A DNA stretch of 12,269 bases from Abditibacteriaceae bacterium (GTDB lineage Bacteria; Armatimonadota; Abditibacteriia; Abditibacteriales; Abditibacteriaceae): NCBI GenBank assembly GCA_031372065.1, contig JANMKN010000184.1, positions 1-12,269 on the forward strand, written 5' to 3'. Position numbers and translations under genes: made by a program. The notes under the pieces were generated by a model. It was not told the DNA's origin. It saw nothing but the letters and a program-made list of their open reading frames with translations, and searched no databases. Shown here piece after piece: positions 5,790 to 12,269 of the stretch (its first letter is position 1; each line of letters opens with the position of its first letter).

Positions 5790-7274
5790 ATGACCACTGC
5801 TGAAACCACCGCCGAACAGATTCATACGCCGAGCCATACTGCCGACACTTATTCCGAGCAATATTCGTCGCCCGCCAAGCAGTTTCATCACGACGCGCAT
5901 GAAATGACGCATGATTTGGCGCATCGTGCGCTGATTCAAAAGGCGCTTAGTGGCTACTATGTCAAGCGCGATGAATGGAAGAATCGCTATGTGTCGTGGC
6001 AGGACGCACGGCAGGCGGCGGGCGAAATCAAATGGGAAGCTGTCAATCATCTTGACCGCTATTTGGATGAATTCGCGCAAAAAATCGCCGCGCGCGGCAC
6101 GCAGGTTTTTTGGGCCGAAGACAGCAAGGCGGCGCGCGATTATATTCTCGAAGTCTGCAAAAAAGCGGGCGCCAAAGTCATCAAATCGAAGACGATGACC
6201 AGCGAGGAAATTCATCTCAACGAAGCCCTGATCCAAAATGGTTTGGAAGTGGTGGAAAGCGATTTGGGCGAATATATAGTGCAATTGCGCGAAGAAGCGC
6301 CGTATCATTTTGTGTTTCCGGCGATGCACCTGACGCGCGGGCAAATTAGCGATATTTTCCAAGAAAAACTGGGCACGCAGCCCAGTGACAGCCCCGAAGA
6401 ACTCACCATGATTGCGCGGCGCGTGATGCGCCAAAAATATCTCGAAGCGGATGTCGGCATTACGGGCGCCAACTTCGCTATCGCCGAAACGGGCACCATT
6501 TCCATCACCGAAAACGAAGGCAACGCGCGCTTGACGATGAGTTTGCCGCGCGTGCATATTGTTTTAGTTGGCATCGAAAAAGTGCTGCCCAAATTGGATG
6601 ATCTCGCCTTGTTTTTGCCGATGCTCGCCACCGCAGGTGCCGGCCAGCCGCTCACCGGCTACAACACCATGATTTCTGGCCCGCGACGCGAAAATGAAGC
6701 GGACGGCCCCGAAGAAATGCACGTTGTTTTGCTCAACAATCAGCGCACCGAACTGTTGGCCGACCCCGAACAACGCGATGCTTTGCATTGCATCCGCTGC
6801 GGCGCCTGTTTGAATGTTTGTCCGATTTTCAAAAACGTCGGCGGCCATGCCTATGGCACGACGTATCAAGGCCCGATTGGGGCGGTTATCACGCCGCATT
6901 TGCGCGGTTTGCAAGAATGGAAGCATTTGTCGGGTGCGTCTTCGTTATGCGGCGCCTGCACCGAAGCGTGCCCGGTGAAAATTGATTTGCATCATCATTT
7001 GCTGCAAAGCCGCCGCAACGCCGCAGCGGAAAAGCCGAAATTTCCCGAAAATTTAGCGTGGAAAGGCTTTAGTTTTTTGATGCGGCGTCCGCGCCTTTAC
7101 CAAACTGCCATGCTATTGGGCCGCGTTTTTCAGCCGTTTCATCGCTTAGTTGATCGCACGCCGCTTGACCCGCTGAAAGCGTGGACAACAGTGCGCACTT
7201 TTCCCCGATTAGCGCGCCGCTCGTTTCGCGAAGAATGGCAAGCCGCCAAAGCCGAACGCGGAGGTGACGCATGA
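5790..7274 (+). CDS. lutB: Lactate utilization protein B (LutB/LldF/YkgF): LUD domain plus two 4Fe-4S motifs
   Basis: KSKTMTSEEI, ESDLGEYIVQL..E.PYH.V.PAMH, ITGANF.IAETG..ENEGN, CIRCGACLNVCP, Y.GPIG and SSLCGACTEACPVKI. ATG at 5790 chosen; an in-frame TTG at 5775 is the alternative start. Confidence 0.93.
   Translation: MTTAETTAEQIHTPSHTADTYSEQYSSPAKQFHHDAHEMTHDLAHRALIQKALSGYYVKRDEWKNRYVSWQDARQAAGEIKWEAVNHLDRYLDEFAQKIAARGTQVFWAEDSKAARDYILEVCKKAGAKVIKSKTMTSEEIHLNEALIQNGLEVVESDLGEYIVQLREEAPYHFVFPAMHLTRGQISDIFQEKLGTQPSDSPEELTMIARRVMRQKYLEADVGITGANFAIAETGTISITENEGNARLTMSLPRVHIVLVGIEKVLPKLDDLALFLPMLATAGAGQPLTGYNTMISGPRRENEADGPEEMHVVLLNNQRTELLADPEQRDALHCIRCGACLNVCPIFKNVGGHAYGTTYQGPIGAVITPHLRGLQEWKHLSGASSLCGACTEACPVKIDLHHHLLQSRRNAAAEKPKFPENLAWKGFSFLMRRPRLYQTAMLLGRVFQPFHRLVDRTPLDPLKAWTTVRTFPRLARRSFREEWQAAKAERGGDA
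7260..7267 (+). promoter_or_regulatory. Shine-Dalgarno sequence for lutC
   Basis: GGAGGTGA, with GGAGG ending 6 nt before the ATG at 7271. Confidence 0.7.
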
Positions 7275-8005
7275 AAAATGTAGCAAAAGGCCAGCAACTC
7301 GGCGCGCGCGAAGCGATTCTTTCCAAAATCACACGCGCCTTGCAAATTCCCGCGCCAAAACCCGGTGCGCATACCACCCCCCACCCAACCTCCCCCACAG
7401 GGGGAGGAGTTGTGCTTCCTGTCATCAACGGCGCGCAGTGGCAACAATGGCTGCCGCCCGCCGGTGAAAAATGGGACGATTGGGCCGCGCTCTTTGCCAG
7501 CAACGCCGAAGGCTTGAAAGCCGACTTTCGCTTGCTGGCAAATGAAAGCGAATTGCCCGCCGCCCTGCAAAAACTGCGCGACGAAAATCATTGGCAGCGC
7601 ATCGCGTTTCATAGCGGTGAATTAACCGAAACAGCCAGACACACTTTAGATTTGCCGTCGCTGGAAATTGTCGAAGGCTATGACCGCGACGAACTGGAAA
7701 AATGCGATGCCGGAATTACGCTGTGCGACGCGCTGATTGCGCAAACTGGCAGCATTTTAATTACTTCGCGCAGTGCCGGAGGCCGCGCTCTTTCGGTTTT
7801 GCCGCCGCATCATGTGGTGTTGGCGCGGCGCGAGCAACTCGTGCCCGATTTGCCATCGGCTTTTGAACTTTTGCGCGCTTCTTACGGCGATGATTTGCCC
7901 AGCATGATGGGTTTTATTACCGGCCCCAGTCGCACGGGCGATATTGAGCGCATTTTAGTTCTTGGCGCGCATGGGCCGAAGCAACTGACAATTTTTTGCG
8001 TTTAA
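7271..8005 (+). CDS. lutC: Lactate utilization protein C (LutC/LldG/YkgG), LUD domain
   Basis: N-terminal AREAILSKI, GIT.CDALIAQTGS, GR.LS.LPP.H and the diagnostic ITGPSRTGDIE..LVLGAHGP. ATGA overlap with lutB. Confidence 0.92.
   Translation: MKNVAKGQQLGAREAILSKITRALQIPAPKPGAHTTPHPTSPTGGGVVLPVINGAQWQQWLPPAGEKWDDWAALFASNAEGLKADFRLLANESELPAALQKLRDENHWQRIAFHSGELTETARHTLDLPSLEIVEGYDRDELEKCDAGITLCDALIAQTGSILITSRSAGGRALSVLPPHHVVLARREQLVPDLPSAFELLRASYGDDLPSMMGFITGPSRTGDIERILVLGAHGPKQLTIFCV
7377..7410. repeat. Short GC-rich palindromic (REP-like) element read in frame within lutC
   Basis: CCCCCCACCCAA followed by a perfect 8-bp hairpin, CCTCCCCC (7389-7396) ACA GGGGGAGG (7400-7407). Encodes PHPTSPTGGG. 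Composition differs from the surrounding coding DNA. Only one copy in the window. Confidence 0.65.
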
Positions 8006-8023
8006 AATGGCATAATCTCAGCG

Positions 8024-8062
8024 TTGCTCGCACAGCGCATTGCCTTTACAATAGCCTTGTAA
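8024..8062 (+). promoter_or_regulatory. sigma70-type promoter for the TIR-STAND-TPR gene with overlapping inverted repeat (candidate operator)
   Basis: TTGCTC (8024-8029), 17 nt, TACAAT (8047-8052). TTACAA-tagcc-TTGTAA palindrome at 8046-8062. ATG is 20 nt after the -10 box. Confidence 0.6.
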
Positions 8063-8072
8063 GGCCCAAACT

Positions 8073-11000
8073 ATGCCTCTGAACGCTCCTTCTTTTGACT
8101 TCGACATCTTTGTTTCCTACGCGCACCGCGATGACCATGATGGATGGGTCGAAGCGTTCGTAGATGCCCTTACAACCGAGCACGCCCGCTTCACGCCAAC
8201 GCCACTGCGCCTCTTTTTTGATCGCGATGATATTCAAGCTATGCACGACTGGGAACATCGCATTTTGCGCGGCTTGCGCGGCTCGAAAATCATGTTAGCG
8301 CTGCTTTCGCCGCATTATTTCGACAGCCCTTATTGCCGCAAAGAATGGGAGATTTACATTGATCACGAATTGGATCGTGCCCTACCCGGCCAAGGCATCG
8401 CGCCGATTTATGTCGCCACAGAACCCGGCTTTGAAGATGAAGCAGCGGCGGCGCTTGATCATTGGTTGATAAACCTCAAGCGCCGTCAGTATTTGGATAT
8501 CCGATTGTGGCGCGAGCATGGCCCGGCAGGTTTGCAACACGAGGACGCCCAAATGCGCATTGCCCTACTCGACCAGCAAATCACCGAAAAGTTACAATTC
8601 GCCGAGGATGTCGCCAGTTCGCCGACCAATGCGCCCCCACATAATCGCAATTTCGCGGGGCGCGTCGAAGAACTGCGCAAATTGCGCGAAACATTGGCTT
8701 TGGGTCGCGTGGGAACAATCGCCGTGCTACACGGTTTGGCGGGCATCGGTAAAAGCGCCTTGGCTTTTGAATATGCTCACGCCTATGCCAGCGAATATCC
8801 CGGCGGACGCTTTGTGGTATCGGCTGCTGGTGTCGCCGATTTGCGCATACCAATTATCAATTTGGCCGACTTAAAAGGCGTTGAACTTACCGAAGACGAA
8901 CGTCAAAATTTGGAGGCGGCTTTTGCCCGCGTGCGCGCTGCCTTTGAAAGCGGGCCGCGCAGTTTGCTCGTTTTAGATGGCGTGGACGAGGCCACGCTTC
9001 TCTCACCCGCACAACGCGCGAAATGCCTGCCTGCCAGCGACAACGTTCACATTTTAGCGACCACGCGCCTCGAAGCCAAACGCGCTCATGGCTTGGAATT
9101 TATCACCATTGACGCCCTGCCCGAACGCGAAGCGTTGGCGCTCTTGGAAAAGCATCGCCCATTTGAAAATGAAGATGATCGCGCCGCTGCCGGGCGCATT
9201 GTGGCGCGACTGGGCGGTCACACTTTAGCGATGGAAGTTGTCGCCGTTTATCTTTGGCAAACACCGGAAGTTTCGTATTCAGGCTACGCCGCACGCGTGG
9301 GTGCTGAAGGATTGGGCGCCGTCGAAGGTGTGGCGATGGAAGAAGGTGTCGAACTGACGCGCCATCATGAAACAGTGCTTTCGCAATTGCTGGCACCAAC
9401 TTTGGATTCGTTAGATTCCACCGAAACTCTCATAGTGAATTACGCTGCCCTTTTGCCGCCAGAGCGCATTGCATTTCCGTGGCTCAAGGCGCTGATTGGA
9501 CAAACAGACGCGCGCTTTTCTGGCCCGGTCAAACCCGGTTATCCCGATCAGTGGAAGCAAATCGAAAGACGCCTTTTAGGTCTGCGCATTTTGACAGAAG
9601 GCGAAGAAACGCGCCTTGCCCGGATGCCGCGACTGACGCAGGAAATCATTGCCTCACGCCTTGACGATGCCTTTTGCCAGCGCGCTATTTTGGTGGCCCA
9701 CGCAGCGGAGCGCGCCAGTTGGTTGTTGGAAAACTGGACTGGCGTTGACAATCGCTGGGAAGTCGGCCCCTTATTGGACTTTGCCAAATTGCTTTTATCG
9801 GATGAATCCACCTTCGCGCAAGGCGCGACACTGGCAAATCCTGTTTCCGATGTGTTGATTCTGTTGGGCCGCTATTACGACGCCCTTTCCTTGCTGGGAC
9901 AGGCCACCACAGGCCTATCCGCGCCCGTTTTGCACGCTGATTTGCTGTCGAATTTGGCTTTGGTCGAACAAGCCTTAGGCGACACTGGCAAAGCAAAATC
10001 GCGCCTCCACGACGCGTTAAAATTGGCCGAAGACAATCAACTTTCCGGCGAAATTATGGCGCGCCTGCTTTCTAATTTGGCGGGTGTTGAGTCCGATTTA
10101 GGTGACCTGAATGCCGCACGTTCATTGCTTCAGCGAGCGATTGAAATTGAAATACAAACTTTGGGCGCGGCGCATCCGGCGCTGGCGACCAGCTATTCCA
10201 ACTTGGCCGATATTGAGCGAGAAGCCGGTCATCTCGACGAGGCGGCGCGTTTATTAAACGAAGCCATCCAAATTGAAGAAGCCGCATTAGGCACCGAGGC
10301 GCCGAATTTAGCGGTGCGCTACGCGAATCTGGCAGCGGTAGAACAAGGGCGAGGTTATCTCGCTGAGGCGCGTGCTTTGTTGCAAATCGCCATCAATTTG
10401 CAAGAACAAAATTTGGGAGACGAGCATCCCGATCTGGTAATTGGCTATTCCAATTTGGCGACCATCGAACGCGACTTAGGCAACTACGCGGCGGCGAAAA
10501 CTCTGCTCGAACGCGCCATTGATTTGCAGAAGAAGTCACTGGGCGCGGAGCATCCGGCTTTGGCAACGCGTTATTCCAATTTGGCGCTGGTTGAGTTGGA
10601 TTCGGGCAACGCGGCGCAGGCGCACCGCTTGTTGCAAGACGCCGCGCGCCTTATTGAAGACAACTTCGGTGCCGACCATCCCGCGCTGGCCGTGATTTAC
10701 TCACATCAAGCGATGGCCGAGCGTGATTTGGGAAACTTCGAGGCGGCCCGCGCCTTGATTTTGAAAGCTGTCACCGCCGATGAAGCCGCGTTCGAGCCAG
10801 ATAATCCCAATCTCGCCATTACCTATTTCAAACACGCCAGTATTGAATTGCATAGCGGCCAACTCAAAGCGGCGCGGGCACCTTTGGAGCGCGCGATTGC
10901 CATTCAGGAAAACGCCCTCGAAAATGACCATCCCCGCTTGGCGCAAAGTCTCTTTTTGATGGCCCAACTCGAAGCCGCGCATGGCAACGAAGCCGCTGCC

Positions 11001-11102
11001 CGTGAGTTTGCAGCCCGCGCTCACGCCGCTCAACACACCAGATTAGGAGCCGCACATCCCGACACCCAAAAATCAGCGGCATGGCTGCAATTGAGGACGT
11101 GA
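8073..11102 (+). CDS. TIR - NB-ARC/STAND ATPase - TPR protein (bacterial NLR-like)
   Basis: TIR: FDIFVSYAHRD, LFFDRDDI, LLSPHYFDSPYCRKEW (Glu91). NB-ARC: FAGRVEEL, Walker A GLAGIGKS (aa 221-228), Walker B LLVLDGVD (aa 298-305), ILATTR, LGGHTLA. C-terminal 42-aa TPR repeats. Confidence 0.92.
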   Translation: MPLNAPSFDFDIFVSYAHRDDHDGWVEAFVDALTTEHARFTPTPLRLFFDRDDIQAMHDWEHRILRGLRGSKIMLALLSPHYFDSPYCRKEWEIYIDHELDRALPGQGIAPIYVATEPGFEDEAAAALDHWLINLKRRQYLDIRLWREHGPAGLQHEDAQMRIALLDQQITEKLQFAEDVASSPTNAPPHNRNFAGRVEELRKLRETLALGRVGTIAVLHGLAGIGKSALAFEYAHAYASEYPGGRFVVSAAGVADLRIPIINLADLKGVELTEDERQNLEAAFARVRAAFESGPRSLLVLDGVDEATLLSPAQRAKCLPASDNVHILATTRLEAKRAHGLEFITIDALPEREALALLEKHRPFENEDDRAAAGRIVARLGGHTLAMEVVAVYLWQTPEVSYSGYAARVGAEGLGAVEGVAMEEGVELTRHHETVLSQLLAPTLDSLDSTETLIVNYAALLPPERIAFPWLKALIGQTDARFSGPVKPGYPDQWKQIERRLLGLRILTEGEETRLARMPRLTQEIIASRLDDAFCQRAILVAHAAERASWLLENWTGVDNRWEVGPLLDFAKLLLSDESTFAQGATLANPVSDVLILLGRYYDALSLLGQATTGLSAPVLHADLLSNLALVEQALGDTGKAKSRLHDALKLAEDNQLSGEIMARLLSNLAGVESDLGDLNAARSLLQRAIEIEIQTLGAAHPALATSYSNLADIEREAGHLDEAARLLNEAIQIEEAALGTEAPNLAVRYANLAAVEQGRGYLAEARALLQIAINLQEQNLGDEHPDLVIGYSNLATIERDLGNYAAAKTLLERAIDLQKKSLGAEHPALATRYSNLALVELDSGNAAQAHRLLQDAARLIEDNFGADHPALAVIYSHQAMAERDLGNFEAARALILKAVTADEAAFEPDNPNLAITYFKHASIELHSGQLKAARAPLERAIAIQENALENDHPRLAQSLFLMAQLEAAHGNEAAAREFAARAHAAQHTRLGAAHPDTQKSAAWLQLRT
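9930..11075 (+). repeat. Array of about nine 42-aa kinesin-light-chain-type TPR repeats
   Basis: Consensus HPxLAxxYSNLAxxExxLGxxxxAxxLLxxA. Equivalent codons at 10194, 10320, 10446, 10572, 10698, 10824 and 10950 (exactly 126 nt apart), plus two LSNLA units upstream. Boundaries approximate. Confidence 0.9.
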
Positions 11103-11120
11103 AGGCGCGCTTTATAACAC

Positions 11121-12269
11121 CTATGGCGCATCCTCAACTTTGATACGAAAAGTGTGAAAAATTTCCTGTCCCAGCGTGTCGTGAATGGAAAGAATTACAA
11201 CTTCCTCAGTGCCCGTGTAGTTGGCTGGCGGCATCCAAGTGAGCCGTCCTTTTTCTGTAATCGCCATTCCCGGCGGGCCACTATCCAGTTTAAATGTCAC
11301 AGCATGGCGCGCCACAACATCCAATTGATAGGTGTAGTGGCGTCCTTTGACGGCCACGTTCGGCGGCACAGATTGCACGAATAAATAATCCACATCAAGT
11401 TTTTGTAACTCGCGCAATAGTTCGATAGGCCGCAACACCAATTGGTCACGCGCGGCGGAAAGCGTCACCAGCAAATTATAAGAGGGCATGAAAAAGATGC
11501 GTTTATCGGCGGGCAAGCGATCACTTGAACGAACGCCGGCCATTGGGTCGCCGACTTCCTCAAGTGTCGCCAGTTTCATAATCAAGCGGCGGTCATTGGC
11601 CGAATACAAAGATAATTCGACTGGCGATGGTTTTTGCTGCCCAAAACCACCAGCGCGTCCCCAAAAACGATTGACACCATTCAGTCCTAAATAAAACGCC
11701 GAGGAATAGGATGGAAGAAAGGCAATTTCCTCATTGCGGCGCTCATTTTCTCGCCCATCAAGCGGTTTCATGTCGGGCGTAAAAAGGCCAACCGAGGTAT
11801 AAATCGTGCGGCCATCGGGCGAGGGTAAGACAAGGCCAACATCAGCAACGCCGACACGCCGACTTAATACGCTGCCGTTTAGCACCGTTATGCCCCCCTC
11901 GCGCGGCGACCCTTCGTTGACCCACGCCGTGAATAAGGTTCCATCGGCAGAAACGCGCACATTTTTGCCTTCGATGCCGCGCGGGTTGACGCCATTAGGG
12001 ATTATTTTCACATCCAGCGGCTGCAATTTTTGCAAGTCGAAAAAGACAATCGGGCCACCGGAATCTGGCCCACGCCAACGCGTTTGTTGAGCTATGCCTA
12101 CCGGCCCTTGCGACGAGGCACCCATGCCTGCGCCCACAGCGATAAAGCCGCCGGGCAACAAAGTAGATAATTCGCGTTCGCCGGTCAGCAAATTCCAGCG
12201 TTGAATAATACCTTCATTGGGCAGAATCACAACTAATTTATCCATGCCCGCCGCAATATAGGCTTCGTC
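11121..12269 (-). CDS. C-terminal part of a larger, probably exported protein: beta-propeller-like region plus C-terminal putative Ig (He_PIG/cadherin-like) domain; 5' end outside the window
   Basis: Frame is open from the window edge (DEAYIAAG-MDKLVV...), so the Met at 12245 is probably internal. Blade-like motifs VRVSADGTLF, PSPDGRTIYT and IVFFDL. Ig-like tail SVPP..AVKG..YTYQL.V....FKLDSGPPGMAITEKGRLTW.P. TAG at 11123-11121. Confidence 0.75.
   Translation of the reverse strand, partial: DEAYIAAGMDKLVVILPNEGIIQRWNLLTGERELSTLLPGGFIAVGAGMGASSQGPVGIAQQTRWRGPDSGGPIVFFDLQKLQPLDVKIIPNGVNPRGIEGKNVRVSADGTLFTAWVNEGSPREGGITVLNGSVLSRRVGVADVGLVLPSPDGRTIYTSVGLFTPDMKPLDGRENERRNEEIAFLPSYSSAFYLGLNGVNRFWGRAGGFGQQKPSPVELSLYSANDRRLIMKLATLEEVGDPMAGVRSSDRLPADKRIFFMPSYNLLVTLSAARDQLVLRPIELLRELQKLDVDYLFVQSVPPNVAVKGRHYTYQLDVVARHAVTFKLDSGPPGMAITEKGRLTWMPPANYTGTEEVVILSIHDTLGQEIFHTFRIKVEDAP

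Follow-up and report, generated by a model that had tools for sequence, protein, structure and literature searches.

The 12,269 nucleotides of Abditibacteriaceae DNA analyzed here (the window, on contig C344 of the host genome G000, which is 94% complete) encode a real, intact NLR-like TIR receptor, P0001, which has a known architecture and belongs to a large family, and whose gene context points to signaling through a messenger. The gene is an intact open reading frame (positions 8073-11102, + strand) for a TIR/NB-ARC/TPR protein of 1009 residues without an internal stop, and one contig from a sequencing run (X1), possibly of the source sample, covers positions 6948-11953 with zero differences.

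Architecture and conservation of the receptor

Pfam matches to P0001 that exceed the cut-offs are to TIR_2 (residues 12-144, E 1e-17), NB-ARC (PF00931, residues 200-394, 29.8 bits versus a cut-off of 23.5), and TPR_10 and TPR_12, and the AlphaFold2 model of the protein has a mean pLDDT of 94 and a pTM of 0.87. A first-pass annotation, made from the DNA letters, had proposed an effector-ATPase-sensor layout, intact Walker A and B motifs including Lys227, Glu91 within the sequence SPYCRKEW (nt 8343-8345) and TPRs of 42 residues; all of these are borne out, the last by an identity of 0.34 at a lag of 42 residues in the C-terminal part as compared with 0.06-0.16 at 19 other lags (30-49). Its reading of the protein as NLR-like, with a TIR that is probably catalytic, is supported. 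Glu91 is a putative catalytic Glu in the αC helix with an aromatic residue, Tyr87, at position -4, the arrangement that marks enzymatic TIR NADases. The best 150 of the 544 clusters (50% identity) that a search with the TIR and NOD core found at E ≤ 1e-30 were listed; 203 proteins were examined, of which 197 have a scorable TIR, 4 gave no TIR match, and 2 were dropped because of a low score or gap. The Glu is kept in all 197, and 187 of them have an aromatic residue at -4 (Tyr in 121, Trp in 49, Phe in 17). According to the account in 10.1101/2022.05.07.491051, an aromatic residue, mostly Trp, is present at that site in all cyclase TIRs. The TIR profile matches the TIRs of Cat1, TcpB, AbTir, Roq1, and RUN1 about equally (E 1e-8 to 2e-7), a result from which the product cannot be predicted.

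The NTPase is of the Apaf-1/CED-4/plant NLR (AP-ATPase or NB-ARC) type. A profile of the NOD from 26 relatives has its best matches to AfsR, Apaf-1 (E 3e-15), and Roq1, and the modeled NOD of P0001 aligns with CED-4 over 346 residues (VIA Z 28.2, root mean square deviation 3.4), with matches also to plant resistosomes. Both Walker motifs, a TTR sensor, a GLPL-like motif, HD1, and the winged helix that mark this STAND clade are all present; the NACHT model (PF05729) scores 17.2 bits against a cut-off of 26.7, which does not place P0001 among the bNACHT proteins. The His of the MHD motif is replaced by Pro519, a point absent from the first-pass annotation. In plant NLRs the MHD motif helps to hold the off state, so the activation threshold of P0001 may differ. 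Four of the eight closest orthologues likewise lack this His, with Gln or Asn in its place. As a separate observation, the sensor-1 Arg is lost (TTT for TTR) in the eight closest orthologues (P0002, P0003, P0004, P0005, P0006, P0007, P0008, and P0009) and kept in P0001.

The TPRs match those of kinesin light chain (E 3.5e-42), and an Asn at one helix-A position is common to the first six of the nine repeats; by structure comparison the superhelix resembles those of the short-peptide binders APPBP2, Rap-Phr, and NprR. Identity among nine close orthologues drops from 0.77 in the TIR to 0.60 in the TPRs, where the same repeat is compared across orthologues, and is 0.34 between successive repeats. 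As each repeat thus keeps its own residues, the sequences suggest a single fixed ligand, pointing to a peptide or a protein surface that is itself conserved, and not a sensor that diversifies. Fungal allorecognition NLRs have hypervariable sensors; a sensor of that kind is ruled out here by the repeat-specific conservation and by a rate of nonsynonymous differences (pN) far below that of synonymous differences (pS). In comparisons of P0001 with two orthologues, pN is 0.19-0.38 and pS is 0.69-0.79, the synonymous sites being near saturation, and the gene is under purifying selection.

The closest relatives of P0001 (about 54% identity) are from Abditibacteriota, and named family loci are in Abditibacteriota, Planctomycetota, Armatimonadota, Verrucomicrobiota, Ignavibacteriota, Acidobacteriota, and Halomonas. 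The C-terminal parts of 143 of the 169 members in which this region is long fall in one TPR cluster, and the others carry HEAT, RyR, PEGA, or a second TIR; P0137 is a member with a fused RyR domain. An N-terminal NUDIX-type domain is present in 16 of the 203 members, with the full Nudix-box pattern in 4 and its first part in 12. There is no evidence for a working unfused form of this TIR; of the six TIR-only proteins (97-312 residues), several are on short contigs and are probably fragments.

Distribution, gene context, and candidate receivers

Of the 27 host-family genomes, 5 carry the P0001 gene, and it was not found in any of three congeners (79-97% complete), in which other genes follow lutC; the comparison with relatives that the first-pass annotation had proposed thus gives the patchy occurrence expected of defense genes. 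On the tree the five copies from Abditibacteriota group together (100/97), with P0001 as the sister of the other four. A recent horizontal arrival is not supported, as the GC content (0.552) and the GC content at third codon positions (0.572) are similar to those of the neighboring genes, and this host-like composition, the near-saturated synonymous sites, and the low pN fit an old inheritance with many losses and relocation. Viral contigs gave no family member by full-length alignment and one weak match by TIR alignment, plasmids no family match at 1e-20, and phages none at 1e-10, and there is therefore no sign of carriage on those elements.

The genes around the four closest orthologues encode McrBC, caspase-PEGA-TPR, TPR-CHAT, and DUF4062-nSTAND1-TPR proteins, a SLATT-like protein, and a K+ channel that carries TrkA-N and RyR domains. 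Near more distant members there are NUDIX-SLOG-SLATT, TPR-S, TCAD9, RyR, SLATT, and other TIR genes, and toxin-antitoxin, CHAT, and other STAND-TPR genes are also among the neighbors of the family. The SLATT-like protein has an N-terminal SLOG fold, which a sequence search of the PDB missed and a fold search recovered (Foldseek with a model of the G000 orthologue: YpsA, E 7e-5; DprA; the SLOG domain of ThsA). Of 33 family loci, the 22 with a length of at least 9 kb were used to count neighbors: SLOG, RyR, or TPR-S genes are present at 10 of them, whereas none of 40 loci of distant NB-ARC proteins had one and 2 of the 16 loci of other TIR genes did. The nominal p of 1e-4 overstates this difference, because the TPR-S profile was built from family loci, Pfam was not run on the control loci, and some of the loci are related to one another or share a genome; when SLOG and RyR profiles built outside these neighborhoods are used, the counts are 8 of 22 and 0 of 40. 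The presence of such neighbors is scattered over the family tree (7 changes, at least 3 of them forced), and the gene that directly adjoins the family gene on the same strand is of a receiver type in four cases (SLATT in L026, an RyR protein in L036 and L105, and SLOG followed by SLATT in L037). Systems of SLOG, SLATT, NUDIX, and TPR-S proteins were reportedly treated by Burroughs and Aravind in 2015 and 2020, and that work may already predict these neighborhoods.

Other recurrent genes were seen at these loci. A protein of about 880 residues with an ATPase-like middle and one or more C-terminal RyR domains (L036:12472-15093, L105:5249-7939, L110:15089-16510, and L099:7454-9787) adjoins family genes or a small SLOG gene, and neither of the two copies scanned with PADLOC gave a match. 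Planctomycete members have a nearby pair of TCAD9 and TPR-S genes (L026:1182-3650, L028:15279-17191, and L032:10368-11478), and two members are of the NUDIX-fused type. A gene for a TraG/VirD4-like coupling protein is directly upstream of the family gene in L039 (5817-7907), where the family gene is in pieces, and in L113 (2134-3696). In a genome without a family NLR (L100:1979-9060; G016:C3), TIR-ankyrin genes flank a SLOG-like gene, placing another type of sensor beside the same receiver.

Orthologues of the island genes are present in G000 on contigs other than C344. One operon, divided between two contigs (C363 and C60) whose starts share an identical stretch of 87 nt, encodes a small RyR protein, a 311-residue TIR protein, a Tll0287-HAMP protein (a haem-type sensor), a K+ channel bearing TrkA-N and RyR domains, and a SLOG-SLATT protein. 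This gene order recurs in G002, G003, G018, G012, and G021, and in G006 without the small RyR gene at that site. Full-length genes for the channel and the SLOG-SLATT protein are present in all five genomes that carry the receptor, including G000. Two further genes were noted in G000. The first (L091:5930-8844, - strand; C277) encodes an NB-ARC-TPR protein of 676 residues that scores 424 bits, above cut-off, with NF040586, and is directly behind a weakly matching adenylate/guanylate cyclase-like gene, a possible cyclase-coupled NLR. The other (L090:5388-9911, - strand; C362) encodes a DUF4062-nSTAND1-TPR protein of 1508 residues as called, with an extra N-terminal part, an orthologue of which is near the receptor gene in G018; DUF4062 is described as a TIR-like NADase in 10.64898/2026.05.01.722283.

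Within the window, lutC precedes the P0001 gene in the same orientation, with 67 nt between them. The other genes, by Pfam, are a DUF1592/DUF1552 pair and genes for SpoU, QueF, an M15 peptidase, LutB, and LutC, together with an unassigned open reading frame at the contig end (11121-12269, - strand); the last is of at least 374 residues, is open to the end of the contig, has no Pfam, NCBIfam, or PADLOC match, and was not found in the five relatives searched. No defense gene was detected in the window with Pfam in the eight other main reading frames or with PADLOC in seven of them. The view in the first-pass annotation that the gene stands alone without a partner holds for the window but not for the family, given the neighbors at 10 of the 22 long loci, nor for the genome, in which another contig has the SLOG-SLATT and RyR-channel genes. 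The candidate promoter of its own that was attributed to the gene is weak: no sigma-70 site on the + strand passes the threshold of a promoter scan, and the best candidate (Table 1) falls below it. An operator-like palindrome, TTACAA-N5-TTGTAA (8046-8062), is unique in the genome, but perfect 6-bp inverted repeats occur in 11% of 2000 random 67-nt windows and the palindrome was not seen upstream of the orthologues, and it was rejected.

Table 1. Positions of the receptor gene, its parts, its candidate promoter, and the candidate receiver operon
Feature	Location	Strand	Basis
P0001 gene	8073..11102	+	Open reading frame, Pfam, AlphaFold2
TIR domain, about aa 10-175	8100..8597	+	Pfam TIR_2 and profile matches
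YxxxE motif: Tyr87 at the cyclase-TIR aromatic site and putative catalytic Glu91	8331..8345	+	Family alignment, published role of the site
NB-ARC (AP-ATPase) module, aa 186-530: nucleotide-binding domain, HD1, winged helix	8628..9662	+	Pfam, profiles, structure alignment
Walker A, GLAGIGKS, aa 221-228 (Lys227 at 8751-8753)	8733..8756	+	Lys in 69/69 aligned
Walker B, LLVLDGVD, aa 298-305	8964..8987	+	Asp302 in 68/69 aligned
MHD equivalent, Met-Pro-Arg, with Pro519 replacing His	9624..9632	+	His in 175/186 family members
Nine kinesin light chain-like TPR repeats, about 42 aa each	9924..11054	+	Repeat analysis, profile match
Weak candidate promoter, TTGCTC-17 nt-TACAAT	8024..8052	+	8/12 consensus matches, below scan threshold
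Candidate receiver operon, part 1	G000:C363:359-1686	-	Locus L092/L087 pair
Candidate receiver operon, part 2	G000:C60:678-5552	+	Locus L092/L087 pair

Proposed mechanism and alternatives

By analogy with NB-ARC families, the off state of P0001 would be held by bound nucleotide, and binding of a target protein in the TPR groove would lead to oligomerization and assembly of a ring. The clustered TIR heads would then cleave NAD+ through Glu91, as in other TIR families. Because receiver-type genes are enriched near the genes of relatives, we infer that the product would be an ADP-ribose (ADPR)-type messenger; it would be read by SLOG, SLATT, TPR-S, or RyR-domain membrane proteins, most likely with the outcome of stopping phage infection. 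In G000 the receivers would act in trans and would be the RyR-domain K+ channel and the SLOG-SLATT protein encoded on C60. That P0001 is a ligand-gated TIR making such a messenger for separate membrane proteins is the explanation that we favor, although tentatively. Besides that enrichment, it draws on the conservation of Glu91 and of the aromatic residue at -4, the likeness of the NOD to CED-4 and plant resistosomes, the direct same-strand neighbors, the NUDIX and RyR fusions, the channel and SLOG-SLATT genes in all five carriers, the SLOG fold, and the SLATT and TPR-bearing effectors of Thoeris VII and VIII. A more elaborate version, to be regarded as more doubtful, is that P0001 is part of a pathway in bacteria corresponding to that of the plant TNLs: an NB-ARC-gated TIR would sense an invader and make a cyclic ADPR (cADPR) or ADPR messenger that opens separately encoded SLOG-SLATT pores or RyR-domain channels, fused NUDIX domains would set the threshold in some members, and in G000 the receptor would feed, in trans, a receiver operon that also serves a second TIR, linked to a haem sensor.

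Several observations weigh against messenger signaling and have to be set beside those in its favor. A receiver gene is absent from the window and, within about 8 kb, from 12 of the 22 long family loci. Three genomes (G002, G003, and G006) have the channel and SLOG-SLATT genes without the receptor, and the operon has its own TIR in seven of the eight genomes that carry it, the contig of the eighth ending there. The operon on C60 therefore does not depend on P0001, and the co-location of receptor and receivers may only reflect shared islands. Every carrier of the receptor is also a receiver-bearing genome, which is what dependence would predict, but the carriers are kin and perhaps represent two independent events. 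In addition, the residue at -4 from Glu91 is Tyr and not Trp, the survey described in 10.64898/2025.12.03.692087 left aside the TIRs of Avs and stand-alone proteins because they probably deplete NAD+, and host-like GC content in a gene whose tree follows the host split is unlike a recently mobile defense gene.

The absence of a partner gene at so many loci is also the observation from which the main alternative draws, namely that P0001 is a self-contained abortive infection receptor in which binding of a phage protein clusters the TIRs and NAD+ is depleted directly. The best match of the TIR among solved structures is to the NAD+-depleting Cat1, although the E value is no better than 1e-8 and TcpB, AbTir, and plant TIRs match equally well, and Avs families kill through their own N-terminal effectors, as described in PMC13581612. 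The NUDIX fusions fit either reading, as they could damp a messenger or, by destroying ADPR, make depletion harder to reverse. This alternative leaves unexplained the enrichment of SLOG, RyR, and TPR-S neighbors, the RyR fusion in P0137, and the restriction of the receptor to receiver-bearing genomes, and we consider it somewhat unlikely. An improbable alternative is that P0001 is a non-immune receptor, whose TPR groove would bind a peptide of the host or its community and whose TIR messenger would feed a physiological ion channel pathway. It would account for the resemblance of the superhelix to peptide binders, the best NCBIfam matches being to TPR and TIR proteins of the FxSxx system (below cut-off), the haem-type sensor in the C60 operon, and the host-like composition and descent of the gene. 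Against it are the occurrence in only 5 of 27 genomes with movement between sites, the McrBC, caspase-like, CHAT, STAND-TPR, TIR, and toxin-antitoxin neighbors, and the lack of FxsB above cut-off in the genome. Pro519, the weak promoter, and the separation of the gene from the island genes that flank the copies of relatives could also indicate a decaying relic that lost its partners on moving next to lutC; the intact frame, Glu91, and Walker motifs, the values of pN and pS, and replacement of the MHD His in close orthologues as well make this highly improbable.

Comparison with known systems

The TIR-NB-TPR architecture has already been published in bacteria, such proteins being noted in PMC9806590 and PMC7159879, but no published test of the P0001 family was found in the literature searched, a scope outside which most subscription papers fall. 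The same TIR/AP-ATPase/TPR layout is present in the FxSxx-COOH system (NF040586 and NF040588; outlined in PMC7159879), whose models give the best NCBIfam matches to P0001. P0001 differs in scoring below the cut-offs (233 versus 300 bits for NF040586 and 49 versus 130 for NF040588), and there are no peptide-processing genes in the window; the best genomic score with the model for the radical SAM protein FxsB (TIGR04269) is 25.7 bits, compared with a cut-off of 370. The TIR-II systems of E. coli resemble P0001, by description only, in combining a TIR with TPRs, nearly 30% of them including an ATPase as well, and are reported to protect E. coli from phage in a manner that requires the TIR (PMC11350192). 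An 824-residue "Tetratricopeptide repeat protein" in the PDB (9M0N/9UMD), for which no relevant paper was found, has a weak TIR match (E 0.12) and no match to the NOD profile at E ≤ 5.

The PADLOC 2.0 and NCBIfam libraries include Avs models. No Avs-named model in PADLOC or NCBIfam and no Avs-named PDB chain matches P0001, and the PADLOC scan proposed in the first-pass annotation gave only weak matches to PDC-S66, TPR, and mad8, in agreement with its view that this is not a characterized Avs type. P0001 is like Avs1-24, as described in PMC13581612, in having an effector, a STAND NTPase, and a TPR-like sensor in one chain, in its patchy occurrence, and in the defense-type neighbors in relatives, and it differs in the Apaf-1/plant NB-ARC type of its NTPase and in its 42-residue kinesin light chain-like repeats. 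The same source sorts STANDs into 589 clades, among which the P0001 family may have a place. The bacterial STAND receptors tested there kill through their own effector domains, from which a messenger-making family, if this is what it is, would differ. If P0001 only depletes NAD+, it would add another family to the Avs-like ones, aimed at some phage target, from phyla that have been little studied.

Thoeris I, VII, and VIII resemble the loci of the P0001 family in that a TIR with the catalytic Glu is accompanied by SLOG, SLATT, or TPR-bearing effectors, which sense cADPR isomers, the SLATT and TPR-bearing effectors accompanying the cADPR-making TIRs of types VII and VIII, in the account given by 10.64898/2025.12.03.692087; the survey in that work removed STAND-fused and stand-alone TIRs. 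Thoeris systems are two-gene operons, whereas in P0001 the TIR and an NB-ARC switch form one protein, and no signal-reading effector gene is adjacent to it, or in an operon with it, within the window. The plant TNPs and TNL resistosomes are similar to P0001 in domain order, P-loop, TTR, Walker B, and GLPL-like and MHD-like motifs, and cell death induced by a maize TNP requires the TIR Glu and the P-loop, as described in PMC9806590. P0001 is bacterial, however, and was compared with the TNPs by layout and motifs, the likeness according to that source being confined to the nucleotide-binding domain. If the messenger reading is true, the P0001 family would provide a simple system for studying the reading of NAD-derived signals by RyR and SLOG domains, and would join NLR pattern recognition to Thoeris-type signaling in bacteria, which is the logic of the plant TNLs.

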